Part shown: in pieces, positions 44,309-55,337 of the stretch
How the letters are laid out: the number at the start of each line of letters is the position of its first letter
Numbering within the stretch: the stretch's first letter is position 1
Assembly (NCBI GenBank): GCA_048886685.1
Contig: JBHLKM010000003.1
Span: 261,548 to 325,547, forward strand
Length of the DNA: 64,000 nucleotides
Direction: 5' to 3'
Source: Candidatus Hodarchaeota archaeon
GTDB taxonomy: Archaea > Asgardarchaeota > Lokiarchaeia > Sigyniarchaeales > SOKP01
Notes under the pieces: model-generated
What the model was told of the DNA's origin: nothing
What the model saw: the letters and a program-made list of their open reading frames with translations, nothing else
The model's database searches: none
Program-made: the position numbers and the translations under genes

Positions 44309-45595
44309 ATGCCAAAACCGGACTATTTTATCGGAGAAGCATTAATAGGAGAGGGCGATGATTTAGCTCATGTAGATTTGATAATTGGTTCAAAAGATGG
44401 TCCTGTAGGGATTTCATTCGCAAATGCATTAAGTACACCTTCAAAAGGTCACGGTGGTCTTCTCGGAGCAATTCGTCCCAATTTATTGTCTAAACCTGTA
44501 TCACTTGTCGTACCTAAAGTAACGGTTTCCGATTTGGAAGATGCTAATAAGATTTTTGGCCCTGCCCAAGCGGCAGTAGCCAAAGGGATTGCAGATTCCG
44601 TTGAAGAAGGCTTAATTCCCTTGAATAAAGTAGATGATTGGGTAATAATTGCAAGTGTATTTATCCATCCAGCAGCTAAAGATTATCGAAAAATTTATCA
44701 ATACAATTATGGGGCAACAAAATTAGCAATTCAGAGAGCTCTAAGAGGATATCCTCCAATCGAAAAGATTTTTTATGATAAAGATCGTGCAAAACACCCT
44801 ATTGCTGGAATTAGAGTTCCCAGATTATGGAGACCTCCTTATATTCAAGTTGCATTGGATCATCCTGCTTTGGAGAAACAAATAAAGGTCGTTAAAGAAT
44901 TACCAAAGAGTGATCGAATTATATTAGAAGTTGGTACACCATTTCTTAAGAAATATGGCGTAGAATCGATTAAACAAATTCGGGAAGTCGCTAGAGAAAA
45001 GTTTATTGTAGCTGATTTAAAGACCTTAGATGTTGGAAAATTAGAAGTTGACTTTGCTTTTGATGCAACCGCCGATGGAGTTGTAGCAAGTGGTTTAGCT
45101 GCTACAGCCTCACTTGATAAATTTATTTTAGAAGCACAAAGACTCGGAATTCATGCTTTTGTTGATACTATGGAAGTTCAAAATCCTATTGAGAAGTTAA
45201 GCTCATTAAAACAAATCCCTGATGTGGTTATTATACATAGAGGAATTGATGTAGAACAATCTGCAGAAGGAGATAAATCCCCAGATGCCCAACAAAAACA
45301 GAGATGGGCATTAGCTCCAAAAATTAAAGATTTGTATGCAAGTAAAAAGAAAGCTTCTGGAAAAGATAGAGTACTTGTTGCTGTTGCTGGTGGAATTGAA
45401 CCAAGTTCTGCGACTTATGCCTTAGATGCAGGAGCGGATATTCTGATTGTAGGAAGATTTATAGCCTCTGCAAAAGATGTAAAGTTTGCAATGAGGAGGA
45501 TGCTTGGCGTTCTTCCGGGTTATCAAGATATCGACTTGAAGAGAATACACACAGAAGATGATGATAACTCAATAAAAAAAGCTACATGGGATTAG
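44309..45595 (+). CDS. fae-hps: Bifunctional formaldehyde-activating enzyme / 3-hexulose-6-phosphate synthase
   Basis: Fae part GEALIG...AHVDL...FGPAQAAVAK...YNYGATK; Hps part QVALD, EVGTP, DLKTLD, HRGID, VAGG, VGR. Confidence 0.93.
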   Translation: MPKPDYFIGEALIGEGDDLAHVDLIIGSKDGPVGISFANALSTPSKGHGGLLGAIRPNLLSKPVSLVVPKVTVSDLEDANKIFGPAQAAVAKGIADSVEEGLIPLNKVDDWVIIASVFIHPAAKDYRKIYQYNYGATKLAIQRALRGYPPIEKIFYDKDRAKHPIAGIRVPRLWRPPYIQVALDHPALEKQIKVVKELPKSDRIILEVGTPFLKKYGVESIKQIREVAREKFIVADLKTLDVGKLEVDFAFDATADGVVASGLAATASLDKFILEAQRLGIHAFVDTMEVQNPIEKLSSLKQIPDVVIIHRGIDVEQSAEGDKSPDAQQKQRWALAPKIKDLYASKKKASGKDRVLVAVAGGIEPSSATYALDAGADILIVGRFIASAKDVKFAMRRMLGVLPGYQDIDLKRIHTEDDDNSIKKATWD

Positions 45596-49442: not shown

Positions 49443-49943
49443 TTAGGTATTCTTCAAAATTATACGCCTAGCATAATTAATCAAGCCGTCATTAGAGACA
49501 ATCTCTTCTATAAAGGTAGGAATTTTCTTCACATGTATTTTTAAATTTGTAGAGATATTCTTAATAACTCCTTCTGTAAATCTAATTTCTATTTCATCAC
49601 CAGTGCTTATAGCTTCAATGTCTTTACATTCAATTATCGGCAATCCTATATTTATTGCATTCCTAAAAAATATCCGTGCAAATGATAATGCTATAATACA
49701 TTTAATTCCCACAGATTTTAGAGCAATAGGCGCTTGTTCTCTGCTTGAACCACATCCAAAATTCGATCCCGCAACTAATAATGTATAACCAAATTTGTTT
49801 TTTTTTTCAATAAATTTAGCATCTAGATCTTCCATACAATGTTTAGCCAAATATTCAGCATCAGATGTAGTTAAATATCTTGCGGGAATGATCAAATCTG
49901 TATTAATATCTTTCATATCATATTTTATAACTTTACCAATCAC
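49443..49943 (-). CDS. leuD: 3-isopropylmalate dehydratase small subunit
   Basis: DINTDLIIPARYL, NFGCGSSREQAP, FARIFFRNAINIG; start reassigned to GTG 49943 after AGGAG. Confidence 0.88.
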   Translation of the reverse strand: MIGKVIKYDMKDINTDLIIPARYLTTSDAEYLAKHCMEDLDAKFIEKKNKFGYTLLVAGSNFGCGSSREQAPIALKSVGIKCIIALSFARIFFRNAINIGLPIIECKDIEAISTGDEIEIRFTEGVIKNISTNLKIHVKKIPTFIEEIVSNDGLINYARRIILKNT

Positions 49944-49953
49944 TTTTTTCTCC

Positions 49954-51228
49954 TTAAATAAATTCTGGTGAAGTAATATATCCCTTAATAGCCGAGGCAG
50001 CAGCAACAGCGGGACTTGATAAATACACTTCACTTTCTATATGTCCCATCCTGCCAGTAAAATTCCTATTTGTTGTAGAGATTGCTTTTTCTCCTGCAGC
50101 AAGAATCCCCATATGACCTCCCAAACAAGGACCACAAGTAGGTGTCGAGACTATCGCACCAGCATTAATGAAAATCTCTATTAATCCTTCTTTTAATGCT
50201 TGAAGATATATATTTTGAGTACCTGGGATGATAATACACCTTACATTACAATGAATTTTTTGGTTTTTTAAAATATTCGCAGCAATTTTCAAATCTTCCA
50301 TGCGACCATTAGTACAAGAACCTATTATCGATTGATCTATTTCTACTCTCATATTATTTACTTCTGAGATTGGTTTAGAATTTTCTGGAAGAGGAGGTAG
50401 AGCGACTTGCGGTTCTATTTTTTTACATTCAATTTCAATAGTATCAATATATTCAGCATTTTTATCACTTTCATAGATCTTATATATTGAATTTCCCGTC
50501 TTTTCCAAATAATCTAACGTAATCTTATCAGGTACTATGATTCCGTTTTTAGCACCGGCTTCAATTACCATATTACACATTGTAAATCTATTATCCATAG
50601 ATAAATTTCTAATAGAATCTCCTGCAAACTCCATTGCTTTATATGTTGCCCCATCAACTCCTATTTTTCCAATAGTATACAAAATTAAATCTTTACCAGA
50701 AACCCATTTATTTAGCTTTCCAGAAAAATCAAAAAGTATAGATTCAGGTATTTTAAGCCAACATTTTCCTAAGGTCATCGCGACACCTAAATCTGTAGAC
50801 CCTACGCCTGTTGAGAAAGCACCAAGAGCACCATATGTGCAAGTATGGGAATCAGCACCTATAAAAAGCTCCCCTGGTGCAACTAATCCTTGTTCTGGGA
50901 TAAGACAATGCTCAATTCCACCATGACCAACTTCAAAATAATTTAAAACATCATATTTATGAGCAAATTCTCTGAGTATTTCACACTGTATTGCTGAGGC
51001 AACATCTTTATTCGGTGTAAAATGATCAGGAGTTAAAATTATTTTATTTTTATCAAAAAGACCTTTATCTGATCCTTCAATAACCTTTTTAAAAACTTCT
51101 ATTGCTATAGGTGCAGTAATATCGTTAGCTAAACATCGATCAATTTCAGCTAAAATGAAATCTCCAGCAACCACTGATTTATCATGAGCATGCTCTCTTA
51201 AGATTTTCTCTGTTATTGTTAACCCCAT
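49954..51228 (-). CDS. leuC: 3-isopropylmalate dehydratase large subunit
   Basis: [29 protein letters not shown]. Confidence 0.88.
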
Positions 51229-51296: not shown

Positions 51297-52919
51297 TTAA
51301 TCGCTGGATGAATTCTTTTTCTTAACTATAAGGTTAAGTCCTTTTAGTAGTGACAAAACGGAACTCATTACGATATCTTCATGAGTAGCACTTGCTTTTA
51401 CTATATGATTACTATCGATATCCATAATTTCAATAGTAGTGTGTCCTAGTGCTTCAGTTCCCCCTGTTATTGCATCAATTTGATAATTTAATAGCTTTAT
51501 TTTACTCATTGGTTTAAAGCATTTAATAATTGCATTAACTGATGCATCTACAGGTCCAACTCCAACTGAAGAGGCTACTTTCTCAATACTATTTCCATTA
51601 TCATCAATTTTTAAGCGTACAGTCGAAGTGGGAGTAACAGAGCCAGTTAATACAGTTAATTCTTCGAGTTTTACGAATTGATCTTCTTCAGGTAGGTCTT
51701 CAAAAACATCTTTTAAAATAGCAAAGAAATCTTCTTCGGTTACTTCATGTCCTTTATCTCCAAAAGCTTTAACATGGTTCATAATATTAGAAAACTGAAC
51801 GTCTGTAGTATGAATACCTAAGTCTTCTAATTTTGCTTTAAGTGCATGTCCTCCTGTATGCTTTCCCAATTTTATTGATTGTTTAATTATTTCTTCTACA
51901 TTGTCAGATCGTTTAATGCCTATTAACTCTGGTGTTATAGGTTCATATGCACGAGCATGTTGAATCATTGCATGAGCATGAATACCTGATTCATGGGCAA
52001 ATGCATTCTGACCAATTAATGGCGTCAATCGACCAATAGTTACTTTTCCCCCGCATAAGCTTTCAACTAATTTTGCAGTTGGAAATATCAATCTTGTGTG
52101 TATCTGCATTGGGATTTGATATAAGGCATAAAGAGACATAGCAGTTTCTTCAAATGCCGCATTTCCTGCTCTCTCACCCAACCCTAATATTGTTGTTTGA
52201 GCTTCGGAAGCACCATTTTCAAATCCAGCTATTGTATTTGCCACGGCTAAGCCAAAATCATTATGACAGTGCACCGCAATCCTCACACTTTTAGGTAATG
52301 AGTCATAATTTTTCCTAACAATATATCCATATGCAGTTGGAGATATCGTACCAACAGTATCAGGTATATTAATTCGAGTTGCTCCACTTTCGACGGCAAC
52401 TTGATTAACCTTGATCAGATAATCTAAATCTGACCTTGTAGCATCTTCGGCTGAAAATTCAATCTTAGAATAATGATCTTTAGCATAAGATATTAATTCT
52501 CCAACGATATCAATAACGTCCTCTCTCGTCATTTTTAGTTTTTCTTTCAAATGTAAGTCTGAAGTTGCGATAAATACATGAATTGAATCCATATCTGCTT
52601 CAATAACCTTATCTATATCAATCTTCTTAATACGAGCTAAACCAATTACTTCTGAATCCAAACCAAGTTTCGAAATTTCTTTGCATGCATCAAAATCGCC
52701 TTGGGATATGACTGGAAATCCTGCCTCAATTACATCTATACCCAGCTCATTTAATGATTGGGCAATAGATATTTTTTCCTTTAGTGTAAAGCTAATTCCT
52801 GGTGTTTGTTCTCCATCACGTAGAGTGGTGTCGAAGAAATATGCTTTTTTGGGTAAGACTAATGTCCCACGAATTTTTTCCATCATATCAGAAACCATAA
52901 TATCGCTTTTTTCGTTCAT
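51297..52919 (-). CDS. leuA: 2-isopropylmalate/citramalate synthase with C-terminal regulatory domain
   Basis: DTTLRDGEQ, HCHNDFG, GERAGNA, HESGIH, GVGPVDA. Confidence 0.85.
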   Translation of the reverse strand: MNEKSDIMVSDMMEKIRGTLVLPKKAYFFDTTLRDGEQTPGISFTLKEKISIAQSLNELGIDVIEAGFPVISQGDFDACKEISKLGLDSEVIGLARIKKIDIDKVIEADMDSIHVFIATSDLHLKEKLKMTREDVIDIVGELISYAKDHYSKIEFSAEDATRSDLDYLIKVNQVAVESGATRINIPDTVGTISPTAYGYIVRKNYDSLPKSVRIAVHCHNDFGLAVANTIAGFENGASEAQTTILGLGERAGNAAFEETAMSLYALYQIPMQIHTRLIFPTAKLVESLCGGKVTIGRLTPLIGQNAFAHESGIHAHAMIQHARAYEPITPELIGIKRSDNVEEIIKQSIKLGKHTGGHALKAKLEDLGIHTTDVQFSNIMNHVKAFGDKGHEVTEEDFFAILKDVFEDLPEEDQFVKLEELTVLTGSVTPTSTVRLKIDDNGNSIEKVASSVGVGPVDASVNAIIKCFKPMSKIKLLNYQIDAITGGTEALGHTTIEIMDIDSNHIVKASATHEDIVMSSVLSLLKGLNLIVKKKNSSSD

Positions 52920-53005
52920 TTCCTTTAACCTTTTTAAAATTCTTTAGTTTTTACCAGCCCTCTTATTACTATGAGAGAAGAACTTCCATAGATAAAGAAG
53001 GTTTA
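52920..53005 (-). promoter_or_regulatory. Candidate attenuator: alternative pairing segments between leader stop and leuA start
   Basis: In the mRNA, segment A (AACCUUCUUUAU) can pair with AUAAGAGGG or with AAGGUU next to the leuA start; segment B (UUCUCUCAU) also pairs with AUAAGAGGG. Confidence 0.45.
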
Positions 53006-53116
53006 TTATAATAATAATAAATCTAAATCTAATTCAGTTAAACACAACCCTAATGAAAAAAAACGCTTCAAATAATTTTTAAGTTTAGATTTATATGATA
53101 GTGGAAGCATTTTCAT
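53006..53116 (-). CDS. Candidate leucine-rich leader peptide (36 aa) of the leu operon
   Basis: MKMLPLSYKSKLKNYLKRFFSLGLCLTELDLDLLLL*; 13 Leu, ending TTA TTA TTA TTA TAA, 86 nt upstream of leuA. Confidence 0.6.
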   Translation of the reverse strand: MKMLPLSYKSKLKNYLKRFFSLGLCLTELDLDLLLL

Positions 53117-53140
53117 TTCTCTTAATCCAATAGAATTGTA

Positions 53141-53150
53141 TTTTATAAAA
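53141..53150 (-). promoter_or_regulatory. TATA-box candidate for the leader-leuACD transcript
   Basis: TTTTATAAAA located 25-34 nt upstream of the leader ATG (53116). Confidence 0.45.
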
Positions 53151-53309
53151 TAAATTGCTTGTAGTTTTAAAAATATTTCGATAAATTCAACTTATATGTT
53201 TGATTAAAATGTATTATTTATTGAGATTCAAAATGGGGATAAATGTTCCTTAATCCTTTTTATATCAAACATATTTTTTTTATTTAGAAAAACTTTGGCT
53301 TAAAAAATA

Positions 53310-53990
53310 ATGAAAAAAATTAATAAAATATTGATTGGAACCTTTGCTTTAGCGATTCTTTTTACAATATTAAGCACTAGTACTGTATTAGCCGCAGAAG
53401 CTTCTATAGATATTAATGATGATACTTATCAAACAAGAATACAAGCAAACAATCGTGTAATGTTTACGTTTCGACAGAGGACAAGACTAACATTTGATAC
53501 TAATGTTAATATTGATGTAGATATTAACTGTGATTCTTTGAGGATTGGTATTAAGTCATTCGAAATTGAAATTGACTGTAATCAAGATCTTCAAATGAAT
53601 ATGACATGTACTGAAGAGCAAGCTGAATTAGGATTGTTGATGGGAAACAGATACACTGTACGAAACCGACATAGATATCAATACCAAGAAGGTTTTTGTT
53701 TTTTACTTCAGTGTAATAATTCAGGTGAAATTCAAGCTAAATTAAAAATACAAGCGAATAATCAAAATCATAATGGAAACTGGGCTTATTATGATGAAAA
53801 TTCTGAAGAATGGGTTACAGTTCCAACAACGATAGAAGATGGATATTTAGTTACTGAGACTGATCACTTCTCATACTGGACTGTACTAATTCCCGAATCT
53901 GAAAATAACATCTTAATTTATATCGGTCTCATAAGTGCTGTTGGCATCATCGCTGTGGTTTCATTTATTATTCTTAGAAAAAGAAAATAG
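53310..53990 (+). CDS. Secreted single-pass membrane protein with juxtamembrane HFS motif
   Basis: Signal peptide, WAYYD...WVTVPT...TDHFSYW, C-terminal TM followed by RKRK. Confidence 0.75.
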   Translation: MKKINKILIGTFALAILFTILSTSTVLAAEASIDINDDTYQTRIQANNRVMFTFRQRTRLTFDTNVNIDVDINCDSLRIGIKSFEIEIDCNQDLQMNMTCTEEQAELGLLMGNRYTVRNRHRYQYQEGFCFLLQCNNSGEIQAKLKIQANNQNHNGNWAYYDENSEEWVTVPTTIEDGYLVTETDHFSYWTVLIPESENNILIYIGLISAVGIIAVVSFIILRKRK

Positions 53991-54071
53991 TACTAAGCAA
54001 AGAATTATAAAAAAATTATTTTTTTATTTTAATAATAAATTTATAGAAGAATATTAGAATTTTGAAGATAA

Positions 54072-55337
54072 TTGGCCTATAAAAAAATACTTAATAGGAA
54101 AAAACACGGATTTAACCTTATAATATTAATTCTAATTCTTCTTGAAATAAATGTAATTATATCTGATACATTTGCGAGAACTGAAAACATTTCGGAGTTT
54201 TGGACGGTTGATATAGTTGAAGCCGATGAATACGTTTATTACCATTTTCCAAATAACATTAATTTTGAAATTACAACAAATTCAAGGATAAATCTCTACT
54301 TAGAATATGAAAATAAGATAGCTAATCGTCAGTGTTCATTTTCTTTTTATAATAATGAATCAATTTCTTTAAATATAACATCAAAAACAACTATGAGAAA
54401 TTTTGGGATATCACAACCCCCTAATTCACCTAAAAAAGGAAACTTTCACCTACGATATCAATATAACTGCATTTTCAAGATTCAGTCAAATTCATCAATT
54501 CAAAATTTTTCAATTAGCTATCGCAAAATAAATCAATATGGATTAAATCATGAAGTAAATTATTCATTAGCGCTCTTCAAAATTAATCAAGAATCATGGG
54601 AATTAGTTGAAACCGAAGAAAACTTTAATGAATCTAACTCAGAATTATATTTAGAAAGCACTTTATATGATATTGAAAGTGATACAGAATATTATATAAC
54701 ACTTTTCGAGTTTGCCAGAGAACCTTATGATTGGACTTGGTTAATTTTTACTATTACTATTGTAGCAGTAGGTATACTTTCAATCGCGTTTTTAATATCA
54801 AAAAAGGAATATTTCCACTATTTAAGAAAAAGGACTGTTCCTATTGAGAAAGGGGCTCATAGATTATCTTTAGATGAGGTATTGGAAAATGAAAATCGAA
54901 ATATAATTATTGATCTCATATTGAATGAACCAGGAATCCATTTTAACGAATTATTAAGAAAAACTGGGCTTGCGGCAGGAAATTTAGTTTGGCATCTCGA
55001 TATTCTGCAGACATATAAAATTATAGGGAAAAAGAGAGTAGGTAATTTTATCGCATATTTTCCATATTACCAGAAAAATCCACTTTCTAATGTAGATTTA
55101 AAACTACAAAAAAGTAAACTTACTTTGGAAATTTTAGAAATGATTGAGCAAGAACCAGGCATTTGGAATAATTTAATTACAAAAAAATTCAAGTTGGATC
55201 ATAAAACAATTCACTACCATTTACAGAAATTACATGAACTCGGGTTAATTAAATTAGAAAAAGAAGGAAGAAAAAAGAAAATCTTTCCAAATTTTGAATC
55301 AGATTATTATAAATTCAAAAATAATAATAGCTCATAA
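54072..55337 (+). CDS. Membrane-tethered transcription factor: ectodomain, TM helix, tandem wHTH
   Basis: N-terminal hydrophobic signal, TM WLIFTITIVAVGILSIAFLI, then VLENENR..I...PGIHFNEL...WHL and PGI...IHYHLQKL. Confidence 0.8.
   Translation: MAYKKILNRKKHGFNLIILILILLEINVIISDTFARTENISEFWTVDIVEADEYVYYHFPNNINFEITTNSRINLYLEYENKIANRQCSFSFYNNESISLNITSKTTMRNFGISQPPNSPKKGNFHLRYQYNCIFKIQSNSSIQNFSISYRKINQYGLNHEVNYSLALFKINQESWELVETEENFNESNSELYLESTLYDIESDTEYYITLFEFAREPYDWTWLIFTITIVAVGILSIAFLISKKEYFHYLRKRTVPIEKGAHRLSLDEVLENENRNIIIDLILNEPGIHFNELLRKTGLAAGNLVWHLDILQTYKIIGKKRVGNFIAYFPYYQKNPLSNVDLKLQKSKLTLEILEMIEQEPGIWNNLITKKFKLDHKTIHYHLQKLHELGLIKLEKEGRKKKIFPNFESDYYKFKNNNSS

Follow-up and report, generated by a model that had tools for sequence, protein, structure and literature searches.

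A conserved leucine-codon leader upstream of leuACD in Lokiarchaeia and its possible role in an archaeal form of attenuation

Leader-peptide attenuation is a textbook bacterial mechanism, exemplified by leuL-leuABCD, trpL and pheM-pheST. In archaea, the second codon of trpY has reportedly been proposed as a sensor of charged tRNA-Trp in Methanothermobacter, and a literature search, with most subscription journals outside its reach, returned no published case of a leader-peptide attenuator. In the window analysed here (a stretch of 64,000 nucleotides), an earlier note described a leucine-rich upstream open reading frame (uORF) before leuA, leuC and leuD and interpreted it as a candidate attenuator of the leuL type. 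The locus raises two questions: whether this uORF is a leucine sensor at all, and, if so, how a ribosome reading it could govern the genes behind it.

The uORF was re-found as described (minus strand, 53116-53006; 36 amino acids, 13 of them leucine; four tandem Leu codons; 86 nt from leuA), as were leuA, leuC and leuD downstream, each above its NCBIfam cut-off. The coding features of the locus and the ribosome-binding site (Shine-Dalgarno sequence, SD) of leuA are:

53006-53116, minus strand: leader uORF, 36 amino acids including 13 Leu; an open frame with an ATG spacing of 18-45 codons in homologues
53009-53020, minus strand: the four terminal Leu codons, the candidate sensor; Leu at a frequency of 0.87-0.97 at the last four codons in 70 non-redundant loci
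52928-52931, minus strand: SD of leuA, AGGU at -12; at -13 to -11 in most loci, with nearly invariant alignment columns
51297-52919, minus strand: leuA, 2-isopropylmalate synthase (NF002085, 569 bits against a cut-off of 517)
49954-51228, minus strand: leuC, isopropylmalate dehydratase large subunit (TIGR02083, above cut-off)
49443-49943, minus strand: leuD, small subunit (TIGR02087 subfamily, above cut-off; start inferred from the orthologue L115)

Nine of the last 15 uORF residues are Leu, and the frame closes with four TTA codons followed by two TAA stops, ahead of the leuA ATG at 52919; the peptide tail contains three acidic residues in this copy. The peptide has no Pfam match and no usable match in the ESM Atlas, its exact sequence is a singleton in the protein collection (source Logan), and an Rfam search of the leader gave only two sub-threshold, unrelated matches (E above 1). 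Close relatives carry the labels Promethearchaeota or Promethearchaeia (that is, Lokiarchaeia), and a quick tree, built with no bacterial rows, places this LeuA among Asgard LeuA sequences. A leuB-like gene lies on a separate contig (G000 C27:23528-24595) and has no Leu leader, and in some relatives (L141, L144, L162) leuA, leuC, leuD and a leuB-like gene are consecutive. Elsewhere in the window, positions 53310-55337 on the plus strand hold a divergent pair of genes, encoding a secreted or membrane protein of 226 aa that matches no family with confidence and a membrane protein of 421 aa that contains ArsR-like HTH domains, and 44309-45595 on the plus strand encodes what we take, by eye, to resemble a formaldehyde-activating enzyme fused to hexulose-phosphate synthase.

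Runs of Leu codons might be expected by chance in such DNA, and the genome itself provides the null. In whole-genome uORF sets built on crude gene calls, the leuA uORF ranks first of 1,101 intergenic uORFs for Leu in the last 8 codons, and it alone of 2,855 ends in four Leu, so the tandem codons that the earlier note had singled out are indeed exceptional here. Only two of the 2,855, that of leuA included, combine at least 5 Leu in the last 8 codons with a post-stop fold of -15 kcal/mol or better.

Conservation was assessed on leuA orthologues from three collections, which gave 107 distinct upstream regions at 55% protein identity or more; a leader was scored where a stop codon lies 76-132 nt upstream and is preceded by at least 4 Leu within 8 codons. 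A Leu-run uORF about 90 nt before leuA, which the earlier note would lead one to expect at orthologous loci, occurs in 101 of the 107 Lokiarchaeia loci (one, L069, is doubtful), these being loci that share kinship, with counts that are not independent. One negative locus, L009, has an intact Leu leader at 1000-1500, with an N gap and a second copy of the gene start between it and leuA, probably an assembly artefact; the five true negatives fall outside the leader-bearing group in a quick LeuA tree. In 98 of 100 loci the frame has an ATG 18-45 codons ahead of its stop, and the alternative frames over the same span contain 330 and 211 stops in those 100 loci. The leader stays beside leuA while the upstream neighbour gene differs between genomes, and it is also present in a single-contig genome of 6,035,313 bases (L357). 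In 20 LeuA-family loci from other Asgard orders and classes, at 59% identity or less, no Leu leader was found within 330 nt, though some of these genes may be operon-internal.

The pattern of substitution within the run indicates what is being conserved. Single-step departures from TTA at codons -4 to -2 comprise 14 synonymous and 3 missense changes in a set of 70 non-redundant loci, where a further 20 codons are two-step Leu codons and the last 12 residues include 589 Leu against 33 Ile, Val, Phe and Met taken together. From the synonymous excess, the two-step Leu codons and this residue count it follows that Leu itself, neither a repeat nor hydrophobicity, is under selection, and the synonymous variation that a codon sensor should display is thus present; outside the Leu residues the peptide is not conserved, and its N-terminal sequence drifts. 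Could the run still be a TTA microsatellite or an ORF that arose by chance where the DNA is AT-rich, or could the uORF encode a small membrane peptide and have a terminator of its own? TTA is the genome's commonest Leu codon (48%) and makes up 72% of the run across homologues, and many of the homologous peptide tails are hydrophobic, all of which such an origin would explain. It would not explain why synonymous changes exceed missense ones, why all six Leu codons are used, why two-step codons occur, why Ile, Val and Phe almost never substitute for Leu, or why this tail has three acidic residues; nor why the leader remains with leuA as its upstream neighbours change, why the leader residue switches with the downstream pathway in six leaders, or why the runs in Altiarchaeota are mostly TTG, CTG and CTT. 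We regard a non-sensor origin as extremely unlikely. On this comparative evidence the Leu-run uORF upstream of leuA is a real, conserved regulatory leader and not a product of chance, and it very probably serves ribosome-mediated sensing of leucine.

A similar arrangement is found in a second archaeal group. Among 28 usable Altiarchaeota loci, 16 have a Leu-run uORF before leuA (L372-L376, L385-L392, L396, L397, L404); these uORFs are mostly 30-35 codons long, lie about 70-230 nt upstream of the leuA match, and have their Leu runs near the ORF end, written mainly as TTG, CTG and CTT. In 15 of the 16 leaders a hairpin follows the run closely, its arm beginning about 4-5 nt further on and still within the ORF. 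In five of the leader-bearing Altiarchaeota genomes a second leuA-family gene has no such leader. Strongly supported branches of the quick LeuA tree force at least two gains or losses of the leader.

How the leader is transcribed and translated determines what a ribosome on it could do. The relevant signals are:

53165-53180, minus strand: putative promoter, a BRE-like purine stretch (53180-53174) followed by a TATA box (53173-53165)
53141-53150, minus strand: AT-rich box, 25-34 nt before the uORF ATG; a TATA-like hexamer in 31/67 loci and a BRE-like motif in 1/67
53126-53128, minus strand: SD-like GGA of the uORF, at -12 to -10; a G-rich peak at -13 to -11 across loci

The earlier note had taken the box at 53150-53141 for the TATA element of a near-leaderless transcript. 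The box is there, but its reading as TATA is not supported, given a BRE-like motif in a single locus; it more probably overlaps the transcription start. A BRE-plus-TATA pattern is instead found at about -62 to -50 from the uORF ATG in 53 of 67 non-redundant loci. By the general archaeal TATA-to-start spacing, the transcript likely starts near 53144, about 28 nt before the uORF ATG. An SD-like motif at -16 to -8 is present in 56/67 loci against 20/201 background windows, and the genome has a 16S anti-SD. The distal promoter is supported independently by the first of two helices, H1, whose 5' arm starts at -27. In view of these three observations (distal promoter, SD-like motif and a conserved helix from -27 onward) a near-leaderless transcript is not supported; more probably the uORF has a 5' leader, and H1 takes up the ribosome-binding site that serves it. 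The two helices of the leader RNA are:

53040-53143, minus strand: helix H1, pairing the 5' end, uORF SD and AUG region with the middle of the uORF (z -2.2 here)
52958-53001, minus strand: helix H2, a stop-proximal hairpin with a pyrimidine-rich 5' arm, a purine-rich 3' arm and no U tail (z -2.0 here)

Support for both helices comes from per-sequence z-scores, arm swaps and, for H2, a covariance model, in place of RNAalifold, which gave no consensus on two sequence-only MAFFT alignments, probably due to shifts in bulge and loop length between loci. The signal appears only when H1 and H2 are folded separately (the whole 216-nt leader folded at once has z -0.5). For H1, 50 of 67 homologues have z below -1, 30 of them also below -2, and a sequence's own arms pair better than swapped ones in 54/67; H1 probably shuts down re-initiation on the leader.

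H2 starts 1-6 nt past the stop, which is 4-9 nt past the last Leu codon. It folds with z below -2 in 80 of 100 homologues (4 of 100 for equal stretches within the uORF), its own arms pair better in 87/100 swap tests, and just 2.4% of ordinary gene ends have a fold as good. On the structure named by the analyst, 71% of cells pair, a value reached by none of 500 shuffles, although one slid control came close on covariation. The covariance model has 15 matches, 14 of them outside the training set, with 77% of cells pairing; in these matches 13 of 19 pairs change on both sides, in an alignment that was itself fitted to the model. The 5' arm is 87% C+U at +7 to +12, and an 8-nt pyrimidine run is found at 63% of leuA loci and 21% of ordinary gene ends. 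The hairpin also appears to be tied to the codon run: Leu frequency is maximal at the four codons adjoining H2, and in nine related loci the first paired C lies at +5 if the ORF ends in Leu and at +2 otherwise (p 0.04).

Other elements of a classical attenuator were not found at leuA. Only 13 of 100 loci have a U4 tail after H2, there are 0 terminator-like sites between leader and leuA, and neither masked folding nor swap tests gave an alternative conserved helix that could act as a competing antiterminator. Pairing of the Leu codons with the H2 3' arm is not specific, and no pseudoknot is evident by eye (the folding tools used do not model pseudoknots). Of the parts of a leuL-type attenuator, the conserved Leu-run leader is present here, and no U-tailed terminator or antiterminator was found.

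Taken together, we judge it on balance probable that the leuA leader is a ribosome-read leucine sensor which decides, during transcription, whether RNA polymerase enters leuACD. In the mechanism that we propose, a first ribosome would load on the nascent RNA before H1 forms, and H1 would then block further loading, leaving one decision per transcript, made co-transcriptionally. When Leu-tRNA is scarce, this ribosome would dwell on the terminal Leu run with its leading edge overlapping the base of H2, and the polymerase would read through; with ample leucine the ribosome would finish and leave, H2 would fold, and the untranslated RNA would be terminated or cut before leuA. Because there is no U-tailed intrinsic terminator, we propose that the executor of this off-step would most plausibly be the archaeal termination nuclease aCPSF1/FttA, which the genome encodes (TIGR03675, over cut-off). 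A Lokiarchaeota aCPSF1 orthologue terminates at U-tracts in the heterologous host M. maripaludis (PMC8716108).

That the sensor acts on transcription is likely in our assessment, as H1 sequesters the uORF start and the initiation region of leuA is about as accessible as control regions are. Translational attenuation, in which the free Leu-codon region would pair with the leuA ribosome-binding site until a stalled ribosome released it, has precedents in the mycobacterial poly-Cys leaders (10.1101/834739) and the actinobacterial LEU element (PMC1262725). With the uORF masked, the leuA SD does become more open (mean unpaired probability 0.5-0.6, up from about 0.3), and the Leu run pairs weakly, on a diagonal, with the post-hairpin spacer. 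The gain in opening energy (2.1 kcal/mol), however, is larger than at unrelated initiation regions in just 33 of 65 loci, swapping SDs between loci shows no preference of the H2 arm for its own (41/100), and H1 would limit the repeated leader translation that this model requires; we consider it quite improbable. Similarly small is the probability we give to a stalled ribosome that governs cleavage or decay of the finished mRNA, either because a nuclease would cut at H2 or because the ribosome would protect the RNA. The absence of a terminator motif at the leuA leader would suit it, and aCPSF1 is itself a ribonuclease (PMC13675443), but H2 shows no conserved motif for cleavage, its loop and bulges varying without constraint, and H1 favours a decision made one time only.

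The polarity of the switch is held more tentatively. We lean, at slightly under even confidence, to the folded H2 as the off state, since the Leu peak adjoins H2, the stem keeps its spacing to the last Leu more than to the stop, and the corresponding arms in Trp, Cys, Phe and Altiarchaeota leaders contain or closely follow sensor codons inside the ORF. Folding with a ribosome footprint (9-nt reach) leans the other way: when the ribosome stalls at the last Leu, the H2 arm is half open (unpaired probability 0.51), when it stalls two or four codons further upstream the arm stays paired (0.13-0.15), and with the ribosome at the stop the arm is open (0.88), so that only the last-Leu and stop positions open the arm. 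The same sensor could then work with opposite polarity, H2 being an antiterminator that masks its own pyrimidine-rich arm from aCPSF1/FttA. Under starvation the ribosome would stall upstream, H2 would fold and the genes would be on; in replete cells a ribosome at the stop would hold the arm open and, on leaving, expose a termination signal, turning them off. This geometry is that of the 2:3 antiterminator of classical attenuators. It agrees with the footprint model, in which the arm is closed when the stall is two or four codons short of the stop and open at the stop, with the arm's C+U content and its excess of 8-nt pyrimidine runs over gene ends, and with the reading of U-tracts by aCPSF1 (PMC8716108). 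H2 would, however, be free to refold after the ribosome's departure; a stall must break the helix in the Trp and Cys leaders, where the arm holds the sensor codons; and where the stem lies depends more on the last Leu codon than on the stop. We regard the opposite polarity as unlikely, if less so than the translational and decay readings.

The leuA leader works like a bacterial leader-peptide attenuator, but of two elements that define the leuL class, an intrinsic terminator and a competing antiterminator, neither was found at leuA. It shares with that class a short upstream ORF that has a run of end-product codons and is conserved with its operon. It differs from enterobacterial leuL in that the sensor codons stand at the very end of the ORF and are mostly the commonest Leu codon, a single hairpin has neither U tail nor competing antiterminator, the promoter is an archaeal BRE-TATA, and there is no Rfam match. 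A second model is offered by tnaC-tnaAB of E. coli, where TnaC senses free tryptophan via a conserved nascent peptide and induces catabolism. As in tnaC, a pyrimidine-rich stretch adjoins the leader stop, a termination factor is encoded and there is no intrinsic terminator, and a ribosome dwelling at the leader end may bar the factor from that stretch; unlike in tnaC, only Leu codons are conserved, with no arrest peptide, and the factor would be aCPSF1/FttA rather than Rho. Termination by aCPSF1/FttA is described as acting at transcription-unit ends, and the accessible parts of two sources do not mention a conditional, leader-based use (PMC8716108; PMC13675443); the word "attenuation" is absent from the latter, a 2026 termination review.

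Closer parallels are found among actinobacteria, in which cys leaders without an intrinsic terminator have been described and factor-dependent termination proposed (Seliverstov et al. 2005, PMC1262725), and where mutation tests of a similar Leu leader in Streptomyces gave results unlike those of a classical attenuator (PMC1262725). Like these LEU and cys leaders, the leuA leader has its run beside the stop, upstream of leuA (or of cys genes), and no intrinsic terminator; unlike the LEU element, whose Leu run pairs with the leuA SD and forms a pseudoknot, it shows such pairing no better than controls, and it belongs to another domain with another termination factor. The mycobacterial poly-Cys sORFs (10.1101/834739) are alike in having the cognate run at the C-terminal end, in occurring several times per genome, and in a stalled ribosome that excludes an RNA duplex, but they are leaderless and act translationally via SD pairing, whereas the leuA uORF appears leadered and its SD is not specifically sequestered.

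If the leuA leader is a sensor, other amino-acid genes might be preceded by leaders matched to their own residue, and this expectation, also raised by the earlier note, was borne out. An unbiased genome scan of uORFs placed Trp and Cys leaders in the top three and returned Leu and Ile leaders too; the genes behind them are trpB2, a cysteine-synthase-family gene (cysK), an archaeal-type leuS, and ileS. A Phe leader precedes pheS-pheT-pheA, and an Ile/Leu/Val-rich leader precedes a gene for an FrhB-family protein fused to a TrmB HTH domain (L274:3110-3350; G000 C21, before 57349). These leaders are conserved to varying degrees: that of leuS in 20/20 loci of its family (and 0/4 usable loci of the next), ileS in 7/7, trpB2 in 24/30, cysK in 8/10 and pheS in at least 16/29, and that of the FrhB fusion in 11 loci (including L309-L316, L332 and L333), with a paralogous group lacking it. 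No cognate uORF was found before the second, bacterial-type LeuRS, the second IleRS, ValRS or three leuA paralogues, and no cognate ATG-started leader was seen directly before hisG, aspartokinase-like, thiamine-diphosphate-enzyme, leuB-like and the other synthetase genes checked. Several candidates were dropped: Pro-run and Gln-run uORFs (broken or overlapping ORFs), a Lys-ending uORF before a homocitrate-synthase-like gene (K4 ends are common, 11/1,101, and there is no hairpin), and a Leu-run uORF before a mutS-like gene (weak fold, non-cognate).

The RNA architecture of these leaders varies around a common theme of codon run and adjoining helix. The leuS-type leaders, and with them that of the FrhB fusion, have two mutually exclusive helices, one beginning at the first post-stop base and the other burying a conserved U-tract; in the Trp and Cys leaders the sensor codons themselves form the 5' arm, and in the Phe leader the arm begins within the ORF, about 4-5 nt past the run. 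The ileS leaders (L227-L233) have in the loop of a post-stop hairpin a 9-nt stretch that is complementary to the uORF ribosome-binding site in 7/7 loci and nearly invariant, and by this complementarity it is probably the counterpart of helix H1. In this genome the leuS, cysK and FrhB-fusion leaders have a TATA-like box at about -35 to -28, and these leaders may be near-leaderless. In three trpB2 leaders (L242, L245 and L249) the alternating Trp codons are kept, with the frame shifted and running past the usual stop.

We tentatively suggest, with rather less confidence than for leuA itself, that archaea possess their own family of ribosome-mediated amino-acid attenuators, the leuA type of which would dispense with an intrinsic terminator, set a hairpin against a pioneer ribosome and have aCPSF1/FttA execute the decision. 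The proposed family would span Lokiarchaeia (Leu, Ile, Trp, Cys, Phe and branched-chain leaders) and Altiarchaeota (Leu). Conserved, residue-matched leaders in the closest prokaryotic relatives of eukaryotes offer short, defined elements on which coupling and regulated termination can be tested, and aCPSF1/FttA, which would execute attenuation if the proposal is true, is the archaeal homologue of the eukaryotic 3'-end nuclease CPSF73.

The leaders also serve as flags of gene function. The branched-chain-rich leader marks the otherwise unexplained FrhB-TrmB fusion and, as a matter of residue content, suggests that this protein has an unrecognised role in branched-chain amino-acid metabolism. 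In addition, leaders single out one of two gene copies for each of two synthetases: of the LeuRS genes, the archaeal type has a leader (G000 C9:157651-160539) and the bacterial type has none (C1:296332-299121), and likewise one IleRS gene has a leader (G000 C12:85741-88629) and the other does not (C13:126717-129863); the leader-bearing copies may be inducible back-ups. Two further uORFs were observed in passing. A tryptophanase/tyrosine phenol-lyase look-alike, recognised by eye (G000 C2:279933-281303, minus strand; L277), is preceded at a distance of 291 nt by a uORF of 19 aa with a single Trp late in its sequence, and serA (G000 C38:4378-6138, minus strand; L276) has, 119 nt upstream, a 9-aa uORF with a Phe-rich, non-cognate end that is probably due to chance.
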